The translations under genes and the position numbers were made by a program. A stretch of DNA of 64,000 bases, taken from positions 96,001 through 160,000 of the IMG/VR virus record IMGVR_UViG_3300042691_012617. The stretch is one strand, 5' to 3'. Source of the stretch: a virus. Of the stretch, positions 4,951 to 55,739 are shown piece by piece. The number at the start of each line of letters is the position of its first letter. Positions within the stretch are counted from its first letter, which is position 1. The notes below the pieces were generated by a model. The model was not told the origin of the DNA. It was given only the letters and a program-made list of their open reading frames with translations, and ran no database searches.

Positions 4951-7386
<2,436 letters not shown>

Positions 7387-12378: not shown

Positions 12379-12639
12379 TTATCCGCCCTTTGCTTTCTTC
12401 CAAAGATCGGCATCAGCAGTCTTGCGGGTCTTGCCACCCACAATGAAAGAGTTCACACGGGCGAATGCCCATTGATGGCTTGTAGCACCAGGACGGTGTC
12501 CCCCCTTCCATGCAGCCATGCCCCTGTCATACACTTTCTTGAGGATGCCGTATGAAATGCCGCTAGCCTTTGCTTTTTTTTCCAAAGCGGCGATGCGAGC
12601 CTCTGTAATGTCTTGTTTCAGGGACTTGTAGTTTTTCAT
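12379..12639 (-). CDS. DUF5824-like small basic protein
   Basis: SGISYGILKKVYDRGMAAW..GHRPGA...QWAFARVNSF...K..ADADL; ATGA overlap with upstream stop; starts MKNYKSLKQDITE. Confidence 0.7.
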   Translation of the reverse strand: MKNYKSLKQDITEARIAALEKKAKASGISYGILKKVYDRGMAAWKGGHRPGATSHQWAFARVNSFIVGGKTRKTADADLWKKAKGG

Positions 12640-15600
12640 GACTTCTTCTCGGGGTTGTAGCCCCATACCTTGAGTGCGAGCAACTTGCGTGTTGGGCGAC
12701 CCTTCTCGTCACGCATGCCGCCCTTGGCACCCTTCATGCGGTTGATGAAGTTAACTTGCTTACCCGCCCATTTCCAATCGTTTGGTGTCCACTTTTCCTT
12801 GGGGGTGTCAAGCATGCGGATGATGGCACGGGCAGAGTCACGACCACTTGTGATCTTCTTGCCTCCTGCTCCTGCCTTTCCTGCCTCCTTGCGAGACAGA
12901 CCCGCTTCCTTGCCCTCGTCAGAATCAAGGAACGACTGAATCTCCTTGCCCGACATGTTTACGAGTTTCTGCCACTCCTTGTAGAGAGCCGACTTTTCCT
13001 CTTCCGACTTCTCTTCGCCAAGCCGCTCACGCTCTCCTGGAGTGTCCTTCTTATATGTCTTGACGATCTCGTCGCTGCCGACCAACAGCGGGCCTCTCTT
13101 GCCCATTGCAGTCCATTGCAGGACAGCATTGATCTTCTTCGATTCGTTCAGCCAGTTCTCTGTGGTATCGGTTTCCTCGCCGTGCATCTTCCACGCAGTA
13201 GCATAGAAGACTTCCTTCCAACGCTTGCCATATCGCTTTTGGAACTCCTTCTTGATCTTCTCTTTCTTGGAGAAGCGACGAGCAGGGCCGCTTGGAGGAC
13301 TGACTTCGACCAAGAGGTAGTCAAAGTCTTCGTTGATGTCGGTCTTGGGCAATTCGCTGCCCATCTCGCTATCGCGGATTTCCTTCAGCAAATCAATGTA
13401 TGAACGAGTCAATTGGGCAGCCTCCTGCATGTTACGAGTCAAGCAACGCTCCTCGTAGGCAATTGCCATACGAAGTTTGATTGCGTTTCTTTCATCAGAT
13501 TCATCGATCTTGGACAGACGCTCCATTGCATCGTCGTGTTCGTAGCCATTCTTGAGAGCCTTCAACTTACCCTTCTTGGCGAGTTTCTTGTACAGGGTGC
13601 TGTACTTCGATGGCTTGGTCTTGATGTCTTTCTCATCGGGATTGACAAACTCCCATGTCTGTGGATCGTCATCAGACATTGTCTTGCGCTTTTCAAGACG
13701 CTTCTTGCGAAGTTCGGCTTCTTTCTTGCTCAGACCCGCGACATACTTCTTGGGTAGACCCGAACCCTTGTCCTTTGGGCTTTCCTTTGTTTTACCTGTC
13801 TTGGTCTTGAACTCCTTGCCCTTCGTGACATCTGCTTCAATAAGGGGATTGCCTTCCATCTCATCGCCCATACCGAGCATGCTGAGGAAACTCATGGCAC
13901 CCGACACCAACTTAGTGGCGTAGACACCAATATCAATACCACCCGATTCCATGAACTTGTGGAATAGTTTGGCAATGATCTTGCCAATCTTGTTGTCTTG
14001 GGCAAACATTGAAAGGGTAACCCCTGCGCCCGAAGCCTTGTATGCCTGAAGCATGACTTCATCGCGGACACGCATGACTTCTCGCTTGAAATCTGCGGGT
14101 GGAATCTTGCCTTTCTTGTTCACCAAAGTGAAGACCTTTGCGCTGACTGCGGGAGTCTTCATGATCTCCGCAACAGCCTTCGCAGCATCTTTGACTGCGG
14201 TCTTTTCAACAAGTTCTTCCTCTTCTTCCTCGTCGCCCTTGCGCTTGGAGTTGATATCGGGCTGTGGGTAGATCGCTTCTGCGGGATCGACAACCATGCC
14301 TGTCTTACTGAGGAACTGCAATCCAATCAGCACCTTTGTGGACATGTGACTGCGGTCGCCAAGGCTGAACTTGATGTTGGGATATTTCTTGCCATGGAAC
14401 TCAATGTCCATGAGAACCACAAGACGCTTCTTCTCACCGATACCGCTCTTGACGGTGATGCGACTGACGATCTTTTTAGTGACCTTCTTGCCATTGGGCA
14501 ACTTGAAGGTGACTGTGTGATCGCCGTTGTCCTTGATGTCCTCGGCATGGATCATGTTGTAGCCGCTGTTGCCCGTGTCGATCTTGGCGGTGTACTCCGC
14601 ACCATCGATCTTCACTTCTTCACGCACGGCTAGGTTGGAGAACAACTTCCAATGTGCCTTGTTGAGGATGTAATCGACCAAGTCCTCTACAAGTTCCTCC
14701 CCCTTGACATTGTTCTTGCCCTTGCCATCCTCGTAGTAGCGGTAGTAAATGTTTCCGCTACCTGGGCTTGCATTCATCTCAATGATGTATGGCTTGCCCT
14801 GATTGATGACATGGTCGATACCGACATAGTAGCACTTGCTTACCCTTGCAGCCCGCTCCACCAACTTTATTTCCTCGTCAGAAAGTTGGAAAGACCCGCC
14901 CTTTGAACCACGGGCGATATTCGTGCGGAAGTCCTTGGGTGCCTTGTCTCTCTTGGCACACGCAAAGATCTTTCCGTTCAGCACGATGCTGCGGACATCG
15001 TTCTTGAAGTCAGGTAGGAACTCCTGAATGATGACTTCTGCCTTGTACTTCCATAGCGTCTGAAGCACCGACTTCAGGCTCTCCATGCTTTCGATCTTGG
15101 AGACACCGATGCCTTCCGCGCCCGTGAGAGTCTTCACAATGATCGGGAACTTGCCACCGACTTCCTTGACCGCAGTTTCAATGTTCTCCTCGTTGGCAAC
15201 GAATGCCGTGCGGGGGTGGGGCAACTCATGCTTCTTCAGGGCGATTGCCGTCTCCAACTTGTTGGCGCACAGTTCCATGCCACCACGCTCGTTGACCATG
15301 AACACGCCATTGTTCTGTAGGATGGTCATGATTGCGACTCCGATGTCGCTATTCATCACGCCACCGCGAACAATAGCAACCGTGTCGCTTGGATTGATGG
15401 TGCAGTCCTTGCCTTCACCGTCATAGTTCTTGATGACGATCTTCTTCGATGCAACGCTAGAAATGTCAACCTGAGCCTTGCTCGTCTTCACGGCATAGAA
15501 CTCAATCTTTCGTCGCTTGCAGATCGCTTCCATCTTCTCAATGGTGTCGCTCAGATCCTTCTCCGACGATGTGAGGGCTAGGATGGTTACCTTGTCCTCT

Positions 15601-16241
15601 CCATCCTTGGCTTCGAAGATGTACTCTTCCTTGAGGTTCAATCCTTTTCGGACATCGTTGTACATCTTCTTCTTGAGAGCCATGTCGGTTCCCGCGACAC
15701 CTGTGGCAAACTTCTTGAAGTCGCCATCAAATGCTGCTGCTCTCATCTTGGAGGCAGACATGCCCTGAACGCCCTGTGCATCATCGTCACGGGCTTCCCC
15801 TGCCTGTACGACTTCGAAGTTGTCGAATGAGTACTTGCGCTTCTTTGGATCGCGCTCGGCGGTTCTGCCCTTGTACTTTGCGATGTTCTTGAAATTCTCG
15901 ACCTGATCGCTGCCTGCAATCATCACGATGTTCTTGTAGCCCAAGTCACAGACATGCAGAACCGCAGAGTATGGATCTCCCGCCTTGTTCAGAGGGAACT
16001 TCGCCTTGGGGAAGAACTTCTTCAAGTACTCCACCTTCTGCTTATGTGTCAGGGGATTCTTTTTGGGATCCTGTGAGGTAGAGGCAAAGATGAAGTGATC
16101 GGCATTCCGCTTGGATGCCTCGGAGAGAACTTTGTCAACAAGCACACCGTGACCGATTGTCGGTGGGTTCATGCGACCGAATGCAATGACTACCGTGTCT
16201 TTCTTCGGTGCTTCCGTGAGGTGCTGTGCAAAGTTCTTCAC
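12636..16241 (-). CDS. Multidomain protein: HIGH-family nucleotidyltransferase + RimK-type ATP-grasp ligase + RimB-like aspartyl protease + small domains (C-terminal DUF3140-like)
   Basis: FGRMNPPTIGH/MSASKMR (aa ~1-210); FPIIVK..G.EG.GV, IIQEF, DVR, FRTN..RG, EMNASPG (~212-510); AKIDTG, DRSHM..KVLIG (~540-655); VNMS..E...L...E....G, SGR..A..I, L..WG.NP (~1085-1201). Confidence 0.85.
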   Translation of the reverse strand: MKNFAQHLTEAPKKDTVVIAFGRMNPPTIGHGVLVDKVLSEASKRNADHFIFASTSQDPKKNPLTHKQKVEYLKKFFPKAKFPLNKAGDPYSAVLHVCDLGYKNIVMIAGSDQVENFKNIAKYKGRTAERDPKKRKYSFDNFEVVQAGEARDDDAQGVQGMSASKMRAAAFDGDFKKFATGVAGTDMALKKKMYNDVRKGLNLKEEYIFEAKDGEDKVTILALTSSEKDLSDTIEKMEAICKRRKIEFYAVKTSKAQVDISSVASKKIVIKNYDGEGKDCTINPSDTVAIVRGGVMNSDIGVAIMTILQNNGVFMVNERGGMELCANKLETAIALKKHELPHPRTAFVANEENIETAVKEVGGKFPIIVKTLTGAEGIGVSKIESMESLKSVLQTLWKYKAEVIIQEFLPDFKNDVRSIVLNGKIFACAKRDKAPKDFRTNIARGSKGGSFQLSDEEIKLVERAARVSKCYYVGIDHVINQGKPYIIEMNASPGSGNIYYRYYEDGKGKNNVKGEELVEDLVDYILNKAHWKLFSNLAVREEVKIDGAEYTAKIDTGNSGYNMIHAEDIKDNGDHTVTFKLPNGKKVTKKIVSRITVKSGIGEKKRLVVLMDIEFHGKKYPNIKFSLGDRSHMSTKVLIGLQFLSKTGMVVDPAEAIYPQPDINSKRKGDEEEEEELVEKTAVKDAAKAVAEIMKTPAVSAKVFTLVNKKGKIPPADFKREVMRVRDEVMLQAYKASGAGVTLSMFAQDNKIGKIIAKLFHKFMESGGIDIGVYATKLVSGAMSFLSMLGMGDEMEGNPLIEADVTKGKEFKTKTGKTKESPKDKGSGLPKKYVAGLSKKEAELRKKRLEKRKTMSDDDPQTWEFVNPDEKDIKTKPSKYSTLYKKLAKKGKLKALKNGYEHDDAMERLSKIDESDERNAIKLRMAIAYEERCLTRNMQEAAQLTRSYIDLLKEIRDSEMGSELPKTDINEDFDYLLVEVSPPSGPARRFSKKEKIKKEFQKRYGKRWKEVFYATAWKMHGEETDTTENWLNESKKINAVLQWTAMGKRGPLLVGSDEIVKTYKKDTPGERERLGEEKSEEEKSALYKEWQKLVNMSGKEIQSFLDSDEGKEAGLSRKEAGKAGAGGKKITSGRDSARAIIRMLDTPKEKWTPNDWKWAGKQVNFINRMKGAKGGMRDEKGRPTRKLLALKVWGYNPEKKS

Positions 16242-17440
16242 GACTCGTTTACCTTTCTATTCTGTCTGCTGAACCGCAGACGATTGACCAACTTGACCGC
16301 CGTACCCGTTCTGACGATCACGATTCCTTCGGGGTCGGTGGGACGAATACCATCAGCATCCATGAAGAAGTGACCAAGGGCAGAGACCGCATACAACTTT
16401 CCAAGGATCATCTCCTTGACCTTTGCGATCTTGTTATGCAGTTCAAACATAGCATTGAACTGATCCTCGTAAGCATCGATGAAAGCGAGGATGTCGTTCA
16501 TGGCGGTTTCCTTCGCCTGTCTCCCCTTCTCGGTCTTCAACTTATTTAGTTCCTTTTCCAACTTAGTCTTTACATACAGTTTCAGACCACTTGCGCTGAA
16601 ACTGGTCAGACCGCCGTTGATCGTGCTGTTGATGTAGGGGAGCATCAGCGGCATGAGGTCTTTACGGGCAAGCAGGGGCTTCAGGAAAGGCTTTACCTTC
16701 TTGGCTAGCGTCTCGCACTCGGTGATGCCCCGAAGCGCGGTATCGCCTTCCCCGCCCTTCAGGAGGGCAGGGGTGAGGTCGTAGATGTTCGGATCGGTGA
16801 ACCAAACATCAGGATGCTGCTTGAGTTTGCTAGCGTTGAAGTTGAAGGTGGTTGCCTTCAAATCGGCAAGGGTCTTGCCTGAATACTCGGTGTGGAATGT
16901 AATTCCAATCTTTGCGGCTGCAATCCGCTTGCCGATTTCGCTGTCAGACGGGACGGTGTATAGAATCGTATTTGGTTGGAATCCAATATGTGGCTTTCCG
17001 CCAATCGTCAGACTCTTCTTACCATCAGCGGTGAACATCAGGTCGCCCTGAAGCACACCCTTGATTCCTACCTTTGGCAAATACTTCAGGCATTGAACCA
17101 ACTTGTCTGCCAAGTCCTTGATGTCAAATCCCTTGCGAATCTCTTCTTCGGTATGAAACACCTTCTGCACTTGCTTGCCGAAGACACCCTTGATAGCGAC
17201 GAAAAACTTCTTGTTCTCGGGATTGATGCCGCAGATAACAGCAGGCTTTCCATCCCATTTTGTGGACATTCCTAGCGATGTGTTGCCCGTCTTGAGACTC
17301 TGAACGATGTCCTTCATGAAGGCAATCGCATTGTCCAAGCCACTCCCACCCTTGAGGAGCATGAGATCTTCGATGTGATCTAGGTGCTTGTTCTGCTCAG
17401 TTTGCTCCATGAGAGGGAGCATTTGCTTAAATGACAGCAT
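16238..17440 (-). CDS. Conserved T4-like protein (DUF6267-like) with ligase-type nucleotidyltransferase motifs
   Basis: HLDHIED, KWDG, LQGDLMF, EGIVI, VKLVNR; late promoter at 17460..17466. Confidence 0.7.
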   Translation of the reverse strand: MLSFKQMLPLMEQTEQNKHLDHIEDLMLLKGGSGLDNAIAFMKDIVQSLKTGNTSLGMSTKWDGKPAVICGINPENKKFFVAIKGVFGKQVQKVFHTEEEIRKGFDIKDLADKLVQCLKYLPKVGIKGVLQGDLMFTADGKKSLTIGGKPHIGFQPNTILYTVPSDSEIGKRIAAAKIGITFHTEYSGKTLADLKATTFNFNASKLKQHPDVWFTDPNIYDLTPALLKGGEGDTALRGITECETLAKKVKPFLKPLLARKDLMPLMLPYINSTINGGLTSFSASGLKLYVKTKLEKELNKLKTEKGRQAKETAMNDILAFIDAYEDQFNAMFELHNKIAKVKEMILGKLYAVSALGHFFMDADGIRPTDPEGIVIVRTGTAVKLVNRLRFSRQNRKVNES

Positions 17441-17459: not shown

Positions 17460-17466
17460 TATTTAG
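17460..17466 (-). promoter_or_regulatory. T4-type late promoter (CTAAATA)
   Basis: Upstream of AGGAG RBS of 16238..17440. Confidence 0.7.
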
Positions 17467-17478
17467 GCTCATATGAAA

Positions 17479-17553
17479 TAGGCGGGGCGGGAGTCGAACC
17501 CGCATGAGGGCGATTATAAGTCACCACCTTTTACCACTATCAGGCACCCGCCC
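17479..17553 (-). tRNA. tRNA-Ile (anticodon TAT)
   Basis: GGGCGGG/CCCGCCT acceptor, GGTGA-CT-TAT-AA-TCGCC, GGTTCGACTCC T-arm; no encoded CCA. Confidence 0.85.
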
Positions 17554-45089: not shown

Positions 45090-45432
45090 TGGAGTCGGGG
45101 GGAATCGAACCCCCGTGTTGACATGCTTTCCGTGGTGCCTACTACGCCAATAGCCTTCACTTGTTCAGATCCGCCGCTGAAGGCGACTTAGCGGATCAGA
45201 GTGGGACTCTTTGTTCTCGGCTTCCTTCGGCGTTCCCGTTCCCGAAAGCCCAACCGCTGATTTGCTCCTTACACCCTAGCGGTGTCGTAGTGCTTGGAGG
45301 TCACGCTGCGAGAGCGTAACGGCGAGTCTGCTTGTTGGCAGTTTTGGTTTCCATACGCTTTTAAGAGCCTAGCATGGTTCCTCTTGGCGCATCACTCATC
45401 AGTCTTCATGCAATCGATGCCTGATCGACCCC
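45090..45432 (-). ncRNA. ssrA: tmRNA, tag reading frame ANKQTRRYALAA* (45301..45339)
   Basis: 5' GGGGTCG / 3' GGTTCGATTCCCCCCGACTCCA with G3:U70; internal ORF ending YALAA-stop; ~343 nt. Confidence 0.93.
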
Positions 45433-47151: not shown

Positions 47152-47679
47152 TCAGTAACCCAACTTCTTTAGCGCAGCAATTGTCTCTGCCGCACTCTTG
47201 TGCTTGATCCCGATGCCACCACGGGCTTCCCATTCCTTGATGTTCTTTCCCCAATCATCGATGAGGATGTTGGGAACTCCCTTGGTGACAGCGTAGTCCT
47301 TCTTCTGATCCCGCAGGAGAACATGGCTCTTGGCGGGAAGGGGGCGAAGGTTCTTTTCGATCCACTTCATCTTGTCCTGCTTGGATTTTGACTGCCACGA
47401 TGTCGTGTGAGCGGACAGGATGTTGGGATCGTGCTTGGAGATGTATGCCCACAACTGCTTGCCGTCCTTCATCCAAGGAAGTTCCGCAAACAGGTGCGGG
47501 TGTTCCTTGTCGATGCGAGGCTTGAGTGGATTGACATACGAGTCAAAGTTCTTGTTGTTCAGGTCTTTGATACCATAAAGGTTGGCGATGCCGCCGATGA
47601 TGTCCACCAAGACACCGTCCATGTCGCAGTAGATCTCGCCCTTGACGGCTTCGTTGATGTGGTGGAGGAATGACTTCAT
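47152..47679 (-). CDS. HAD-family 5'(3')-nucleotidase/phosphatase
   Basis: YCDMDGVLVD, ILIDD, W...GGIGI.H; starts MKSFLHHINE after late promoter at 47687..47693. Confidence 0.85.
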   Translation of the reverse strand: MKSFLHHINEAVKGEIYCDMDGVLVDIIGGIANLYGIKDLNNKNFDSYVNPLKPRIDKEHPHLFAELPWMKDGKQLWAYISKHDPNILSAHTTSWQSKSKQDKMKWIEKNLRPLPAKSHVLLRDQKKDYAVTKGVPNILIDDWGKNIKEWEARGGIGIKHKSAAETIAALKKLGY

Positions 47680-52486: not shown

Positions 52487-55400
52487 TTAGGTCAGAACTC
52501 TGTCCTTGATCAATGCTTCGATGGTGGTCGCATCGACATTTCTGACAGCCGTTCTGTACCCGATGGCTTGGTGAACGAGATCCACTTTGCCCTTCGCGTT
52601 GGTGGCTACCTTATAGTTCTCACCCTTCACCACGCTGCCGCTCATCATACTCTTGCTCTGAAGCGCACGGAGTCTTTGACCGACATAGACCATCTTCGAT
52701 CCTTGTACCGCGACACGATCCTGCTCTTCGATCACTTCACCATCGATCTCTGTGATCTCAGATACGGTTCCCTTATCTACTAGTTTCTTCCAAATCTCCC
52801 ATGCCTTCCCCTGCTGCGTTTTGGCTCTTGTGTACATGCTCTTCAAGTTTTTATAGGATGGAACTGCTCCTTCAAACGGAGGAACCGCTCCTGTTGCCTT
52901 GTACCAAGTCCTCAGATCATTCTCACTTGGAACACCCTTCGCCTCTGTGACATCGATTTCTACACTCTCTGCCTTCACATACTTGACATGGTTGCGGATC
53001 GCCCACTTCTCCATCACGGGCTTGCCGTCCGCACCTTCATCAACGGCGATGTAGCAGACGGTTCCCTTGACATTGGCTGATCTCCATTGCTCCTTGCGGT
53101 CCCCACCATAGGAGACGCAGACTTCGTGCGGGAGACCATGGCTCTTGCCCCATGAGTCGGTTGAGTTGCGGTACTCAAACCGCTTCTTATAAGTTGCCTC
53201 CGTGAAGGCACCGACGATTCCCTTCGTGTCCAAGGGAGCGTATGCTTCTGTGAATGATTCGAACACAGCCTTGATCTTAGAGTTGTTGCGATCCTCAGGC
53301 TTGAGGAATTCACGAACTCCCTTAAGAACATGTGCAACCATGTTCTTCGGTTCTCCACGCAGGAAGTCGGTTAGCCCGTCGATCATTTCCCACACAGGGC
53401 CTGAGTCACCGTTCGGAACTTTCATAGTTCCATTGAGACCACCCTTCTTATATGCCTTCTCTAGGTCATCGATCAAACCATCGGCATCCGTCTTGGTCAG
53501 GGAGTCTGTTCCCTTCCACCACACCTCGCTGATGTCGAATGATTCGACCATCGACATGCCGTGCTTGTCCATCCACATGGCGACAGCCTTGAGCAACTGA
53601 CGAGGAGCGAAACGCATTTCCTTGTCACCGACGAAGCGTGTCGTGCTGTCGGGGAAGGCAGTCAGAACCAACTTTGGATTACCCTGCTGCTTCGTGTTGA
53701 AGAAGACCTTATGTGGTGCAATCGATGTGCGGGTGTTCTTCTTGGCGGGTTCTTCGATGAAGCCTACCTCGCCCTTGTTTTGAACGCTGATGAGCCAACC
53801 CTTGAGACTGCCCTCCACGAACGAAGTGAAGCGATACTTGCCGATGACCTGTTGGGCTTCGGTCAGTTCCTCGCCGTCCTCTTCGACGCTCTCGCCCCAA
53901 CTCTTGTTGACGAAGGCAGCGGCTTCTCTCTCGCTATTCATATCCTTGACCCACTTGCCGCTCATCGTATAGATTCCGATGATTCTCTTGGAGTCACGCT
54001 TGCCAGGACCCGTGAGATATTTTACCTTTGCCTCTTCGATATCTACTTCTTCCTTCTGCACCTTCTGCTTGGGAACGAGTACGCTTGCAGGCTCACCGAC
54101 ATCGACCACATAGCCACCGCCATGCTGCCGTGCCTTGTCCGTGCCGCCGTCATCGTAACGGACGATCTTGCCGCTGACCATCTTGCCCTTATGCGGAACC
54201 TTGACCTTGTCGCCCGCCTTGAACTGTTCAGCGACTTCGACTTCTTCCTTGATGGCGACCACGGTGACCTCGCCGCCCGACCAACTTCCCTTGGAGCCGA
54301 CCTTGGCTTCAGGCTTCTTGGTGAGTCCCTTGGTGAGAGAAGCGAAGTCGCTAGGAGCATACACCTTGATCGACATGCTCTCGGGACTCTTCTCCTTGGT
54401 GACAACCAACACGCTGCCCGTGGGCTTGCCCTCAAGAGACTTCTTGGCAGCACGAAGAGAACTGACCATGGAGGATCCGCCGATAGGATCGTCCTTGACC
54501 ATCTTCTCGGCACCCGCCATCATGCGGACACCTTCTTCAACATTTTCAACTTCTTCCTTCACTCCTGCGTTTCTCTTCGCAGCGGCGATGGCTTCGTCCC
54601 TAGTGGCATATCTGCCGATCACCGTTCCCTTGCGACCATCGGGGAAGCGGACACTACCTTGGCTGTAACTTAGTTGGTACAACACGAACTTGCCGCTATC
54701 TCGGTCGAGGCGAAACCCATAGGTGCCGATGTTCAAGTTCTCCTCGTTGACCTCGACCTCTTCCTTAGTTCCAAGATATTTGACTTCGTTCTTGTGCTTG
54801 GCGATGTCATATCTCGGATTGCTACCGACATTCACCATCAGAGCGTCTGAGCCAACCTTGACCACGACTCCACGACGAGGCTTGCCGTTGACCATGGTCT
54901 GCACGGCATCACCAACACGGAACTGATGTGTATCGGTTGCCTCTGCAACCTCGACGCTCTCACCGTGGAATGTGTTGAACATCATCTCTAGTGCAGCGAT
55001 GTCCGACTCCCGTGACTTGTCGCCCATGGCAGGAGCGACCTTGTTCTTGTCTAGGAGTTGCTTGAGTTCCTTGCGAACGGGATCGGTCTTGGACAATCCC
55101 TTCATCTCTGCTGCCTTGAGTTTGGCACCGTACTTGCGACTGATCTCCGCAACCACAGCCTTGGGCAGACCTTCGACCCAATCCTCCATGGCTGCTTTGA
55201 CTGCGCCCTCTGTGATGTACTCTTCGTGAAGCGATTCAAGCATGAGGAACAGATGCGACTCTTTGTCCAAGCCCTCTGTCTTGAGCATGCTGAAGTCAAC
55301 GGTGACGATGGCATTGGTTCCCGCAGGAGCCTTGACCTTGTCGAACGATGTGTTGATCGACGCGGGTGAACCCGTGGCTTGACGCTTGGTCAGACCGTTG

Positions 55401-55690
55401 AAGGTGATGATGAAGTCCCGTGCCTTCGCAGCGTTAGCGAAGTACAGCATCATCTTCTTGTCGCTGACTTCCATCTTGTTGATGCCCTTTTCGAAACCCA
55501 TCTTTTGGATGAGTTGACGCATCTTGGCTTCGAACTGCTGCTTGCTGTAGCCGAACATCGCGCCGCCCCCGCCTGTGGCGAACAGGGGTGCTTCGTTGAT
55601 CGCCTTCGCCATCTGCTCGTTCTTAGAGGTGGCGGCACCGCCGAACTTGGCGGCTTCTGCGAGGATTCGTCTTTGGAATTCGTTCATCAT
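52487..55690 (-). CDS. Modular putative polyprotein (~11 small domains separated by Glu-rich linkers)
   Basis: Late promoter at 55716..55722, AGGAG RBS; recurring KEEVEVAE/ESVE..TE linkers; two SH3/KOW-like modules. Confidence 0.8.
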   Translation of the reverse strand: MMNEFQRRILAEAAKFGGAATSKNEQMAKAINEAPLFATGGGGAMFGYSKQQFEAKMRQLIQKMGFEKGINKMEVSDKKMMLYFANAAKARDFIITFNGLTKRQATGSPASINTSFDKVKAPAGTNAIVTVDFSMLKTEGLDKESHLFLMLESLHEEYITEGAVKAAMEDWVEGLPKAVVAEISRKYGAKLKAAEMKGLSKTDPVRKELKQLLDKNKVAPAMGDKSRESDIAALEMMFNTFHGESVEVAEATDTHQFRVGDAVQTMVNGKPRRGVVVKVGSDALMVNVGSNPRYDIAKHKNEVKYLGTKEEVEVNEENLNIGTYGFRLDRDSGKFVLYQLSYSQGSVRFPDGRKGTVIGRYATRDEAIAAAKRNAGVKEEVENVEEGVRMMAGAEKMVKDDPIGGSSMVSSLRAAKKSLEGKPTGSVLVVTKEKSPESMSIKVYAPSDFASLTKGLTKKPEAKVGSKGSWSGGEVTVVAIKEEVEVAEQFKAGDKVKVPHKGKMVSGKIVRYDDGGTDKARQHGGGYVVDVGEPASVLVPKQKVQKEEVDIEEAKVKYLTGPGKRDSKRIIGIYTMSGKWVKDMNSEREAAAFVNKSWGESVEEDGEELTEAQQVIGKYRFTSFVEGSLKGWLISVQNKGEVGFIEEPAKKNTRTSIAPHKVFFNTKQQGNPKLVLTAFPDSTTRFVGDKEMRFAPRQLLKAVAMWMDKHGMSMVESFDISEVWWKGTDSLTKTDADGLIDDLEKAYKKGGLNGTMKVPNGDSGPVWEMIDGLTDFLRGEPKNMVAHVLKGVREFLKPEDRNNSKIKAVFESFTEAYAPLDTKGIVGAFTEATYKKRFEYRNSTDSWGKSHGLPHEVCVSYGGDRKEQWRSANVKGTVCYIAVDEGADGKPVMEKWAIRNHVKYVKAESVEIDVTEAKGVPSENDLRTWYKATGAVPPFEGAVPSYKNLKSMYTRAKTQQGKAWEIWKKLVDKGTVSEITEIDGEVIEEQDRVAVQGSKMVYVGQRLRALQSKSMMSGSVVKGENYKVATNAKGKVDLVHQAIGYRTAVRNVDATTIEALIKDRVLT

Positions 55691-55739
55691 AGGGTTAATG
55701 CTCCTGAGTAAGGAGTATTTAGCCTTTGACAAACGGGGA

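Follow-up and report, generated by a model that had tools for sequence, protein, structure and literature searches.

A putative head-targeted polyprotein of an uncultured T4-like phage combining a nucleotidyltransferase with a RimK-family ligase and a RimB-like protease

The textbook enzyme that enters the host along with phage DNA is Alt of phage T4. For the T4 internal protein IPIII, the first 10 residues (MKTYQEFIAE) are sufficient for packaging. Within this type of capsid-targeting sequence (CTS), residues 4 and 7 target the protein and residues 8 and 10 direct its processing by the prohead protease gp21, which cuts after L/I-x-E; the T4 internal proteins are described as basic. RimK and RimB form a ligase and protease pair. 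RimK uses a C-terminal Glu as acceptor, its synthesis of free poly-alpha-Glu is stimulated by RimB, and RimB cleaves any tract of at least six contiguous Glu, even an internal eight-Glu linker joining two foreign domains (Little et al. 2025, PMC11957791). In this study, we analysed a stretch of 64,000 nucleotides from an uncultured virus (IMG/VR record IMGVR_UViG_3300042691_012617, positions 96,001 to 160,000; hereafter the window), which encodes a long polyprotein combining a RimK-family ligase with a RimB-like protease behind a CTS-like leader. Our results indicate that this polyprotein is probably packaged into the phage head and processed there.

The polyprotein is encoded by a single open reading frame (ORF) of 1201 amino acids (aa) at 12636-16241 on the minus strand of the window, and the precursor has a mass of about 133 kDa. 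The start codon is GTG, and close relatives have ATG at the same position. From the N-terminus, the protein consists of a 10-residue leader, a nucleotidyltransferase, a RimK-family ligase followed by a RimB-like retropepsin, then three basic modules of low conservation and an end resembling DUF3140 (Table 1). The architecture read in the original prediction was borne out, as every listed domain was found by profile search, with PF08443, PF05618 and DUF3140 above their cut-offs. The nucleotidyltransferase domain (aa 8-208) was found through phrog_3041 'cytidyltransferase' (E 1.2e-52) and fell just under the gathering cut-off of Pfam PF01467, the cytidylyltransferase-like family (18.3 bits vs 21). 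Its FGRMNPPTIGH and GMSASKMR motifs, that is (T/H)xGH and SxSxxR, are kept across the family, and it is similar to gp190 of cyanophage S-SM1 (37% identity, E 2e-37).

The ligase domain passed the cut-offs of PF08443 (105 bits vs 21, E 4.7e-30) and of the RimK family model TIGR00768 (146.5 bits vs 143.4). A family profile searched against the PDB matched RimK structures at E 7e-39 to 2.5e-34, ArgX/LysX at 1e-19 to 1e-16, and GshB at only 1.5e-6. The AlphaFold model of aa 211-679 had a mean predicted local distance difference test score (pLDDT) of 81, and its ten best Foldseek matches were all RimK (top 5ZK6, 5ZCT, 7QYS and 7QYR, E about 1e-21). The domain thus groups with RimK and not with glutathione synthase, the clustering that would have spoken against glutamylation. 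In the family alignment, E488 and N490 are invariant and D476 is nearly so; we take these three residues to be the Mg/ATP-site metal-binding triad of ATP-grasp enzymes. The ATP-grasp domain and the C-terminal DUF3140 module are the two best-conserved parts of the family. The adjoining retropepsin domain passed PF05618 (37.5 bits vs 27), and its D555-T556-G557-N motif is invariant in 44/44 sequences. When two copies of the protease domain were submitted to complex prediction, the score was 0.19 against a mark of 0.42.

The leader carries the features of a T4 CTS. The MKNFAQHLTE sequence noted originally is present at the N-terminus, with positions 1, 2 and 10 identical to the T4 sequence and positions 4, 7 and 8 conservative (F4, H7, L8, E10), so that it fits at all four functional residues. 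It is retained in relatives even where the following residues vary, and about 15 other, unrelated genes of this genome bear it. A loose leader pattern occurred at 22 of 192 gene starts, where about 1.4 would be expected per start tested; up to four candidate starts were tried per gene, which gives an upper bound of about 6 in total. TAAATA lay within 45 nt upstream of 9 of the 23 leader-bearing genes, compared to 29 of the 169 others (Fisher p 0.023). Together with the late-promoter-like motif in front of the operon (Table 1), the sequence suggests late expression of the polyprotein. The source record (168,426 bp, 93% complete) also encodes a gp21-type prohead protease (Peptidase_S77, PF03420, 112.7 bits, E 1.3e-33) and a gp23 major capsid protein (PF07068, 497 bits, E 1.8e-150). 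Judged from these genes, the source phage is T4-like, and its nearest cultured phages by capsid protein are Methylophilales phage Melnitz and Pelagibacter phages Mosig and HTVC008M (62-64% identity). No paper on a CTS in cyanophages was found in the literature. Another leader gene of the window lies directly downstream of two tRNA genes and encodes an NT5C-like 5'-nucleotidase (47152-47679, minus strand; PF06941, 26.6 bits) that starts with MKSFLHHINE followed by A; it may be another head-targeted enzyme.

The candidate cleavage sites lie at the borders of the modules. We found the sites listed in the original prediction where it had placed them: HLTE10/A, YIFE210/A, EEELVE679/K, PLIE802/A, LLVE979/V and WLNE1033/S. 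All follow a hydrophobic-x-Glu (phi-x-E) pattern. Of the non-redundant relatives having the segment, 78-98% retain the border sites, and 57/58 the E210 site, while the flanks of the sites are 29-60% identical. The segment from E679 to E802 behaves as a clean cassette, as many lineages lack almost exactly these residues. All predicted fragments are basic, with an isoelectric point (pI) of 8.1-9.9, and all end in Glu. The original prediction saw no acidic linker between the ligase and the protease and concluded that they would stay together. Two phi-x-E motifs, ELVE519 and AVRE541, do lie between them. In the AlphaFold model, these are inside a confident helix and a confident strand, while disorder is predicted for residues 211-214 and 652-679; the pair would therefore stay joined after processing, as had been concluded. 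As a separate observation, a mini-module of about 50 residues (GGKWVIYSKDGKKKLGTY...AKKRL..IEFFK) occupies differing slots among the relatives P0004, P0019 and P0050, is always flanked by phi-x-E, and is absent from the window protein.

The DUF3140 module also exists as a separate gene with its own T4-like leader, and when fused it is preceded by an internal phi-x-E site. Among the stand-alone DUF3140 genes, 53 of 74 have phi-x-E in their first 16 residues, most commonly at E10, whereas other windows of the same proteins have it in 9%. Leaders such as MKTYTQLIGE and MKNFKQLIGE (P0256-P0269 and others, about 134-138 aa) are nearly the MKTYQEFIAE of T4. One stand-alone DUF3140 gene (L021:5001-5417), on a 79-kb contig, lies near a gene with a weak Collar-domain match (PF07484).

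Homologues of two parts of the polyprotein have been detected in virions. In purified S-SM1 virions, the T4-GC190 'cytidyltransferase' gave 25 peptide counts, compared to 8 for gp21, 6 for gp53 and 5 for gp14 (Sullivan et al. 2010, Suppl. Table 8), and the neighbours of gp190, namely gp188, gp191 and gp192, were detected as well (Sullivan et al. 2010). The N-terminus of gp192 is MLSFKELQE. We compared leaders with virion detection in S-SM1: only one or two genes have a clear leader, and both were detected, numbers too few for a meaningful table. The virion-detected gp191 (L010:2922-4343) contains an EEVENVEE-type linker, KKEEVENVEEGK, which is the same as in a second long ORF of the window (52487-55732, minus strand, 1081 aa); the latter had no family match. 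A homologue of the ligase-protease part, the 'ribosomal protein modification protein' (g112) of Yersinia phage YerA41, was found to be particle-associated by LC-MS/MS in a 2020 list that makes no comment on it; this protein, Gp066, is 28% identical to the polyprotein over 443 residues (E 3e-41). The original prediction knew of no described virion-delivered RimK-RimB. In the literature, we likewise met with no account of a phage RimK-RimB pair or of its delivery, although the YerA41 list shows that a homologue had been recorded in particles; the S-SM1 detection, too, was published with no remark on it. A link to thymidine hypermodification (YerA41, Carin-5) was considered and dropped: RimK, ATP-grasp and glutamate are all absent from the text of the Carin-5 paper, in which YerA41 DNA is re-analysed as well. 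The presence of the S-SM1 orthologue in virions, the particle-associated YerA41 homologue and the T4-like leaders of stand-alone DUF3140 genes are the grounds on which packaging of the polyprotein is proposed.

Based on these results, we propose the following route. The leader would act as a T4-type CTS and bring the polyprotein into the prohead scaffolding core. The prohead protease would then cut after Glu at the exposed phi-x-E linkers, that is at E10, E210, E679, E802, E979, E1033 and perhaps E1076, yielding a 22-kDa nucleotidyltransferase, an intact 52-kDa RimK-protease and four basic proteins of 6.5-20.5 kDa. All fragments would stay with the DNA and be ejected into the next host like T4 Alt and the internal proteins. 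Given ATP and glutamate in the host cytoplasm, the RimK domain would, judged by homology, add alpha-linked Glu to a C-terminal Glu or make free poly-alpha-Glu, and the retropepsin domain would by the same token trim Glu runs and might stimulate the ligase. Host ribosomal protein S6 is the only precedent for a target of the ligase. We favour this complete route, from a late cargo polyprotein that is packaged, cut and injected to an enzymatic role in the host, with moderate confidence.

Several points weigh against this route. Regarding the enzymes, the ligase domain falls short of the S6-ligase equivalog PRK10446 (72.1 bits vs 331) and the retropepsin domain falls short of the RimB equivalog NF052261 (28-33 bits vs 200), scoring slightly better on RloA3 (35-41 bits vs 210). 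Since both domains are under the equivalog cut-offs, they are family members and not demonstrable orthologues. Regarding the sites, a phi-x-K control in Lys-rich linkers had a median retention of 0.61, compared to 0.78 for phi-x-E; as phi-x-K is kept nearly as well, the retention statistic is only suggestive. Indel boundaries fell near the sites in 69 of 188 cases against 45 expected, a weak, 1.5-fold enrichment blurred by alignment error, in which the 680-802 cassette is the one clean case. In neither the Syn9 nor the S-PM2 virion set was T4-GC190 detected. In YerA41, the homologue belongs to the middle genes, and as the particle list of that phage includes many replication enzymes, it may have been carried over. 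Related phages have leaderless RimK-protease genes (P0130-P0152, P0165 and P0186), and the gene of the Mosig homologue is surrounded by replication genes, with a place between regA and the DNA polymerase gene. Finally, we infer packaging, cleavage and activity of the polyprotein alike. The original suggestion of an injected writer and eraser of glutamylation thus gained support from the T4-like phage, the CTS-type leader, the conserved border sites, the grouping with RimK and the homologues in virions, and lost some at the S6-ligase and RimB equivalog cut-offs.

Most of these points would be expected of a multi-domain enzyme of the usual cytoplasmic kind that does not enter the head at all. 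Its N-terminal motif would then be no more than the helix with which the nucleotidyltransferase begins, or else a signal for translation or stability that several genes share, and phi-x-E would reflect the Glu/Lys-rich composition of the linkers. The leaderless forms, the gene positions in Mosig and YerA41, the retention of phi-x-K and the Syn9 and S-PM2 proteomes all suit it. However, such an enzyme fits poorly with the S-SM1 virion counts above those of gp21, gp14 and gp53, with the same leader on unrelated proteins of the genome and on stand-alone DUF3140 genes, mostly with Glu at position 10, and with the late-promoter motif, the sites in disordered linkers and the uniformly basic fragments, and we regard it as unlikely. 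A biosynthetic module is less probable still. Here, like CofF and MptN, the ligase would attach Glu to a small molecule or a cofactor rather than to a protein, and would work with the nucleotidyltransferase and the DUF6267 protein encoded upstream. The MptN and CofF models do score the ligase domain at 122 and 67 bits, and the pairing of nucleotidyltransferase with DUF6267 has been preserved between cyanophages and this phage. Nevertheless, RimK structures and models match far better than any others, the protease domain to which the ligase is constantly fused suggests a peptide as substrate, and RimK-protease also occurs without the nucleotidyltransferase; we consider this explanation very improbable.

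The remaining alternatives concern how the polyprotein is cut and where the ligase acts. The polyprotein carries D-EEEEEE-L in a disordered tail that immediately follows the protease domain. As this six-Glu tract reaches the published minimum for RimB, an enzyme that also cleaves an internal eight-Glu linker (PMC11957791), the retropepsin domain may, by analogy, cleave its own chain there, in cis or within a RimK oligomer, and free itself from the basic tail. A run of at least six Glu follows the protease domain in 25/59 non-redundant relatives and a run of at least five in 30/59, and the phi-x-E site after the tract (E679) is conserved in 29/37 relatives. However, about half of the family, distant branches included, has at most two Glu there and still has the phi-x-E site, so the head protease is the more general explanation; moreover, a domain this far below the RimB equivalog cut-off may differ in specificity. 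A self-processing polyprotein is therefore somewhat doubtful as the principal account, but it is compatible with the proposed route: the six-Glu tract may be cut by the retropepsin while prohead-protease cuts elsewhere become optional. Alternatively, the ligase could act in the producing cell or the prohead, either extending the C-terminal Glu left by prohead-protease cuts, the ...EEEEEELVE end of the polyprotein included, or making free poly-alpha-glutamate as an internal polyanion, akin to the poly-glutamate in the head suggested originally. The need of RimK for a C-terminal Glu acceptor and its RimB-stimulated synthesis of free poly-alpha-Glu (PMC11957791) agree with this, as does the Glu end of every predicted cleavage product. 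It is nonetheless conjectural throughout: an additional polyanion ill suits basic internal proteins and DNA, ATP and Glu would have to be supplied inside proheads, and our literature search found no report of poly-Glu ladders in T4-like virion proteomes. We give it little chance. A coupled system is likewise conceivable, because each gp21-type cut leaves a C-terminal Glu, the RimK acceptor. In it, the packaged ligase would extend Glu tails on processed phage proteins, its own ...EEEEEELVE end being the first, or, once injected, on proteins of the host, and the retropepsin would trim them. Such coupling of the prohead protease with the RimK-protease is a long shot; if true, it would amount to a virion-borne, self-priming writer and eraser of poly-glutamylation, active within seconds of infection.

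The family is widespread among metagenomic sequences. At least 178 metagenomic protein clusters have the whole architecture, down to 42% identity. The whole polyprotein was found in none of 50,697 phage records, where megablast gave no match and tblastn no record covering more than 35%. Shorter natural forms include nucleotidyltransferase-RimK-protease proteins of about 680-720 aa and RimK-protease proteins of about 460 aa (Mosig_00005, YerA41_066), and further stand-alone forms are the nucleotidyltransferase in cyanophages and the DUF3140 module. These shorter forms indicate that the parts are separable units and that RimK followed by the protease is the constant pair. The most distant full-length relatives (P0114-P0120; L009:6001-9480) contain an additional stretch of about 200-250 residues in which DGHHRWAA occurs, a motif reminiscent of ParB/sulfiredoxin-like domains; a ParB-like module was not upheld, as there was no Pfam ParB hit.

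The C-terminal half matched little in the structure and family databases. Sequence searches of aa 680-1201 against the PDB and of aa 680-1040 and aa 1034-1201 against NCBIfam gave no match, and aa 680-802 matched no family and no PDB entry. A membrane segment in aa 680-802 was rejected, because its top 19-residue Kyte-Doolittle value of 1.34 is not of transmembrane grade. The DUF3140 core (aa 1089-1171) passed PF11338 (29.9 bits vs 25). The AlphaFold model of the C-terminal module is helical (pLDDT 69); Foldseek matched its fold to no PDB entry at E <= 0.001, and VIA-align reached a Z of at most 5.1, a value under the noise level of helical proteins. No paper on DUF3140 was found in the literature.

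The polyprotein gene lies in an operon with a DUF6267 gene upstream, and a DUF5824 gene follows downstream (Table 1). The stop of the DUF6267 gene and the start of the polyprotein share GTGA, the last two bases of GTG lying in the upstream TGA; because the stop overlaps the start, translational coupling of the two genes is suggested. One profile, phrog_455, spans DUF6267 and the nucleotidyltransferase. The order of a DUF6267 gene followed by the polyprotein or nucleotidyltransferase gene is also found in L007, L008, L009 and S-SM1. The order gp41-type helicase ... DUF6267, then polyprotein, is conserved in 3/3 relatives examined, and DUF5824 also lies downstream in two of these three (L007 and L008). 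The DUF5824 gene was considered as a paralogue of part of the polyprotein, but it has no similarity to aa 680-1201. A K-W-D-G motif is conserved in the DUF6267 protein (STKWDGKPAV in this phage, SVKWDGAPAI in S-SM1 gp189, L010:796-1770) and resembles motif I of covalent nucleotidyltransferases (ligases); assignment as a ligase was rejected, as there was no PDB or NCBIfam match. A gene for tRNA-Ile (anticodon TAT; 17479-17553, minus strand) lies between the gp41-type helicase gene and the CTAAATA of the operon. In the window as a whole, we found 11 tRNA genes, a transfer-messenger RNA gene inside the tRNA gene cluster (45090-45432, minus strand; tag peptide ANKQTRRYALAA), and an 811-aa tail-fibre protein (4951-7386, minus strand) with long collagen-like repeats that matches many PHROG tail-fibre families.

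Table 1. Features of the polyprotein operon, in window coordinates
Feature	Position	Strand	Basis or remark
CTAAATA, T4-type late-promoter-like motif	17460..17466	-	19 nt 5' of the ATG of the operon's first gene; direct reading
DUF6267 gene, 400 aa, start MLSFKQMLPLME	16238..17440	-	PF19782, E 3e-94
10-residue leader (V/M)KNFAQHLTE, candidate capsid-targeting sequence, cleavage site E10/A11	16212..16241	-	Likeness to T4 CTS
Nucleotidyltransferase fragment, aa 11-210, 22 kDa, pI 9.6, end YIFE210	15612..16211	-	phrog_3041; similarity to S-SM1 gp190
RimK-family ATP-grasp alpha-L-glutamate ligase domain, aa 231-499	14745..15551	-	PF08443, TIGR00768, PDB profile, Foldseek
RimB-like retropepsin domain, aa 540-656, catalytic D555-T-G	14274..14624	-	PF05618; profile matches to PDB 9G58, 9G59, 2PMA
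Acidic disordered linker D670-EEEEEE-LVE679, six contiguous Glu, then phi-x-E site	14205..14234	-	pLDDT 27-44
Module aa 680-802, 13 kDa, pI 9.5, between two phi-x-E sites	13836..14204	-	Present-or-absent cassette
Lys-rich basic module, aa 803-979, 20.5 kDa, pI 9.1, end LLVE979	13305..13835	-	Weak DUF5824 match only, E 0.07
Small basic module, aa 980-1033 (VSPPSGPARRFSKKE...), pI 9.75, end WLNE1033	13143..13304	-	End site in 38/40 relatives
C-terminal module, aa 1034-1201, pI 9.9, DUF3140 core aa 1089-1171	12639..13142	-	PF11338
DUF5824 gene, 86 aa, start MKNYKSLKQDITE then A	12379..12639	-	PF19141, E 9e-19; leader present; downstream of polyprotein

If the proposed route is correct, aquatic T4-like phages, abundant and as yet uncultured, use the way of T4 Alt to deliver a much richer set of enzymes. 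This set would comprise a poly-glutamylation ligase-protease pair and a nucleotidyltransferase, made economically as one precursor that is cut by the head protease, and the RimK/RimB pair, known until now in connection with ribosomal protein S6 and adaptation to stress, would gain a role in host take-over. The proposed route would account for the S-SM1 nucleotidyltransferase in virion proteomes and would give the DUF3140, DUF6267 and DUF5824 families a likely location in the head interior. The leader and the hydrophobic-x-Glu sites would also offer a simple sequence rule to predict injected proteins in metagenomic T4-like genomes.

The system can be compared with several known ones. The T4-GC190 'cytidyltransferase' of T4-like cyanophages (S-SM1 gp190, Syn9 gp184) is homologous to the nucleotidyltransferase described here (37-40% identity); S-SM1 gp190 has the same type of leader, MKKFSAFLNE followed by A, and its gene follows a DUF6267-like gene, as the polyprotein gene does. 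T4-GC190 differs in that it stands alone, is about 385 aa long, has other regions at its flanks and lacks the RimK, protease and DUF3140 parts. Yersinia phage YerA41 Gp066 has the same fusion of RimK followed by retropepsin and was found in purified particles, but it is a stand-alone protein of 473 aa without nucleotidyltransferase or basic modules, from an unrelated myovirus, and has no clear T4-type leader. The Pseudomonas RimK/RimB system (RimABK) resembles the pair found here, with an ATP-grasp ligase nearest RimK by sequence and fold and a retropepsin-like PF05618 protease with DTG. In contrast, the phage system has no RimA, is encoded by a late gene with a leader, and has both domains below the equivalog cut-offs. 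The Desulfotalea RimBK hybrid likewise joins ligase and protease in one chain, with the B part N-terminal, whereas the order in the phage protein is reversed, K then B. In the giant phages phiKZ and SPN3US, gp21-like proteases process many head-internal ejection proteins after Glu within short motifs, in many cases at more than one place, and these proteins are then ejected into the host; these phages belong to another lineage with another motif logo, and no RimK-type cargo has been described in them. The closest comparison is with T4 IPI-III and Alt, which share the 10-residue leader format (positions 4 and 7 aromatic or His, position 8 L/I, position 10 E), a gp21-type protease with L/I-x-E cleavage logic, basic products and, in Alt, enzyme cargo. 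T4 uses one protein per gene, whereas here a 133-kDa precursor, predicted to be packaged, would give about six products, and its cargo enzymes, the nucleotidyltransferase and the RimK-protease, are not known in T4. By analogy, the mechanism would thus be that of the T4 internal proteins and Alt, and what is new would be the multi-product precursor and its cargo.

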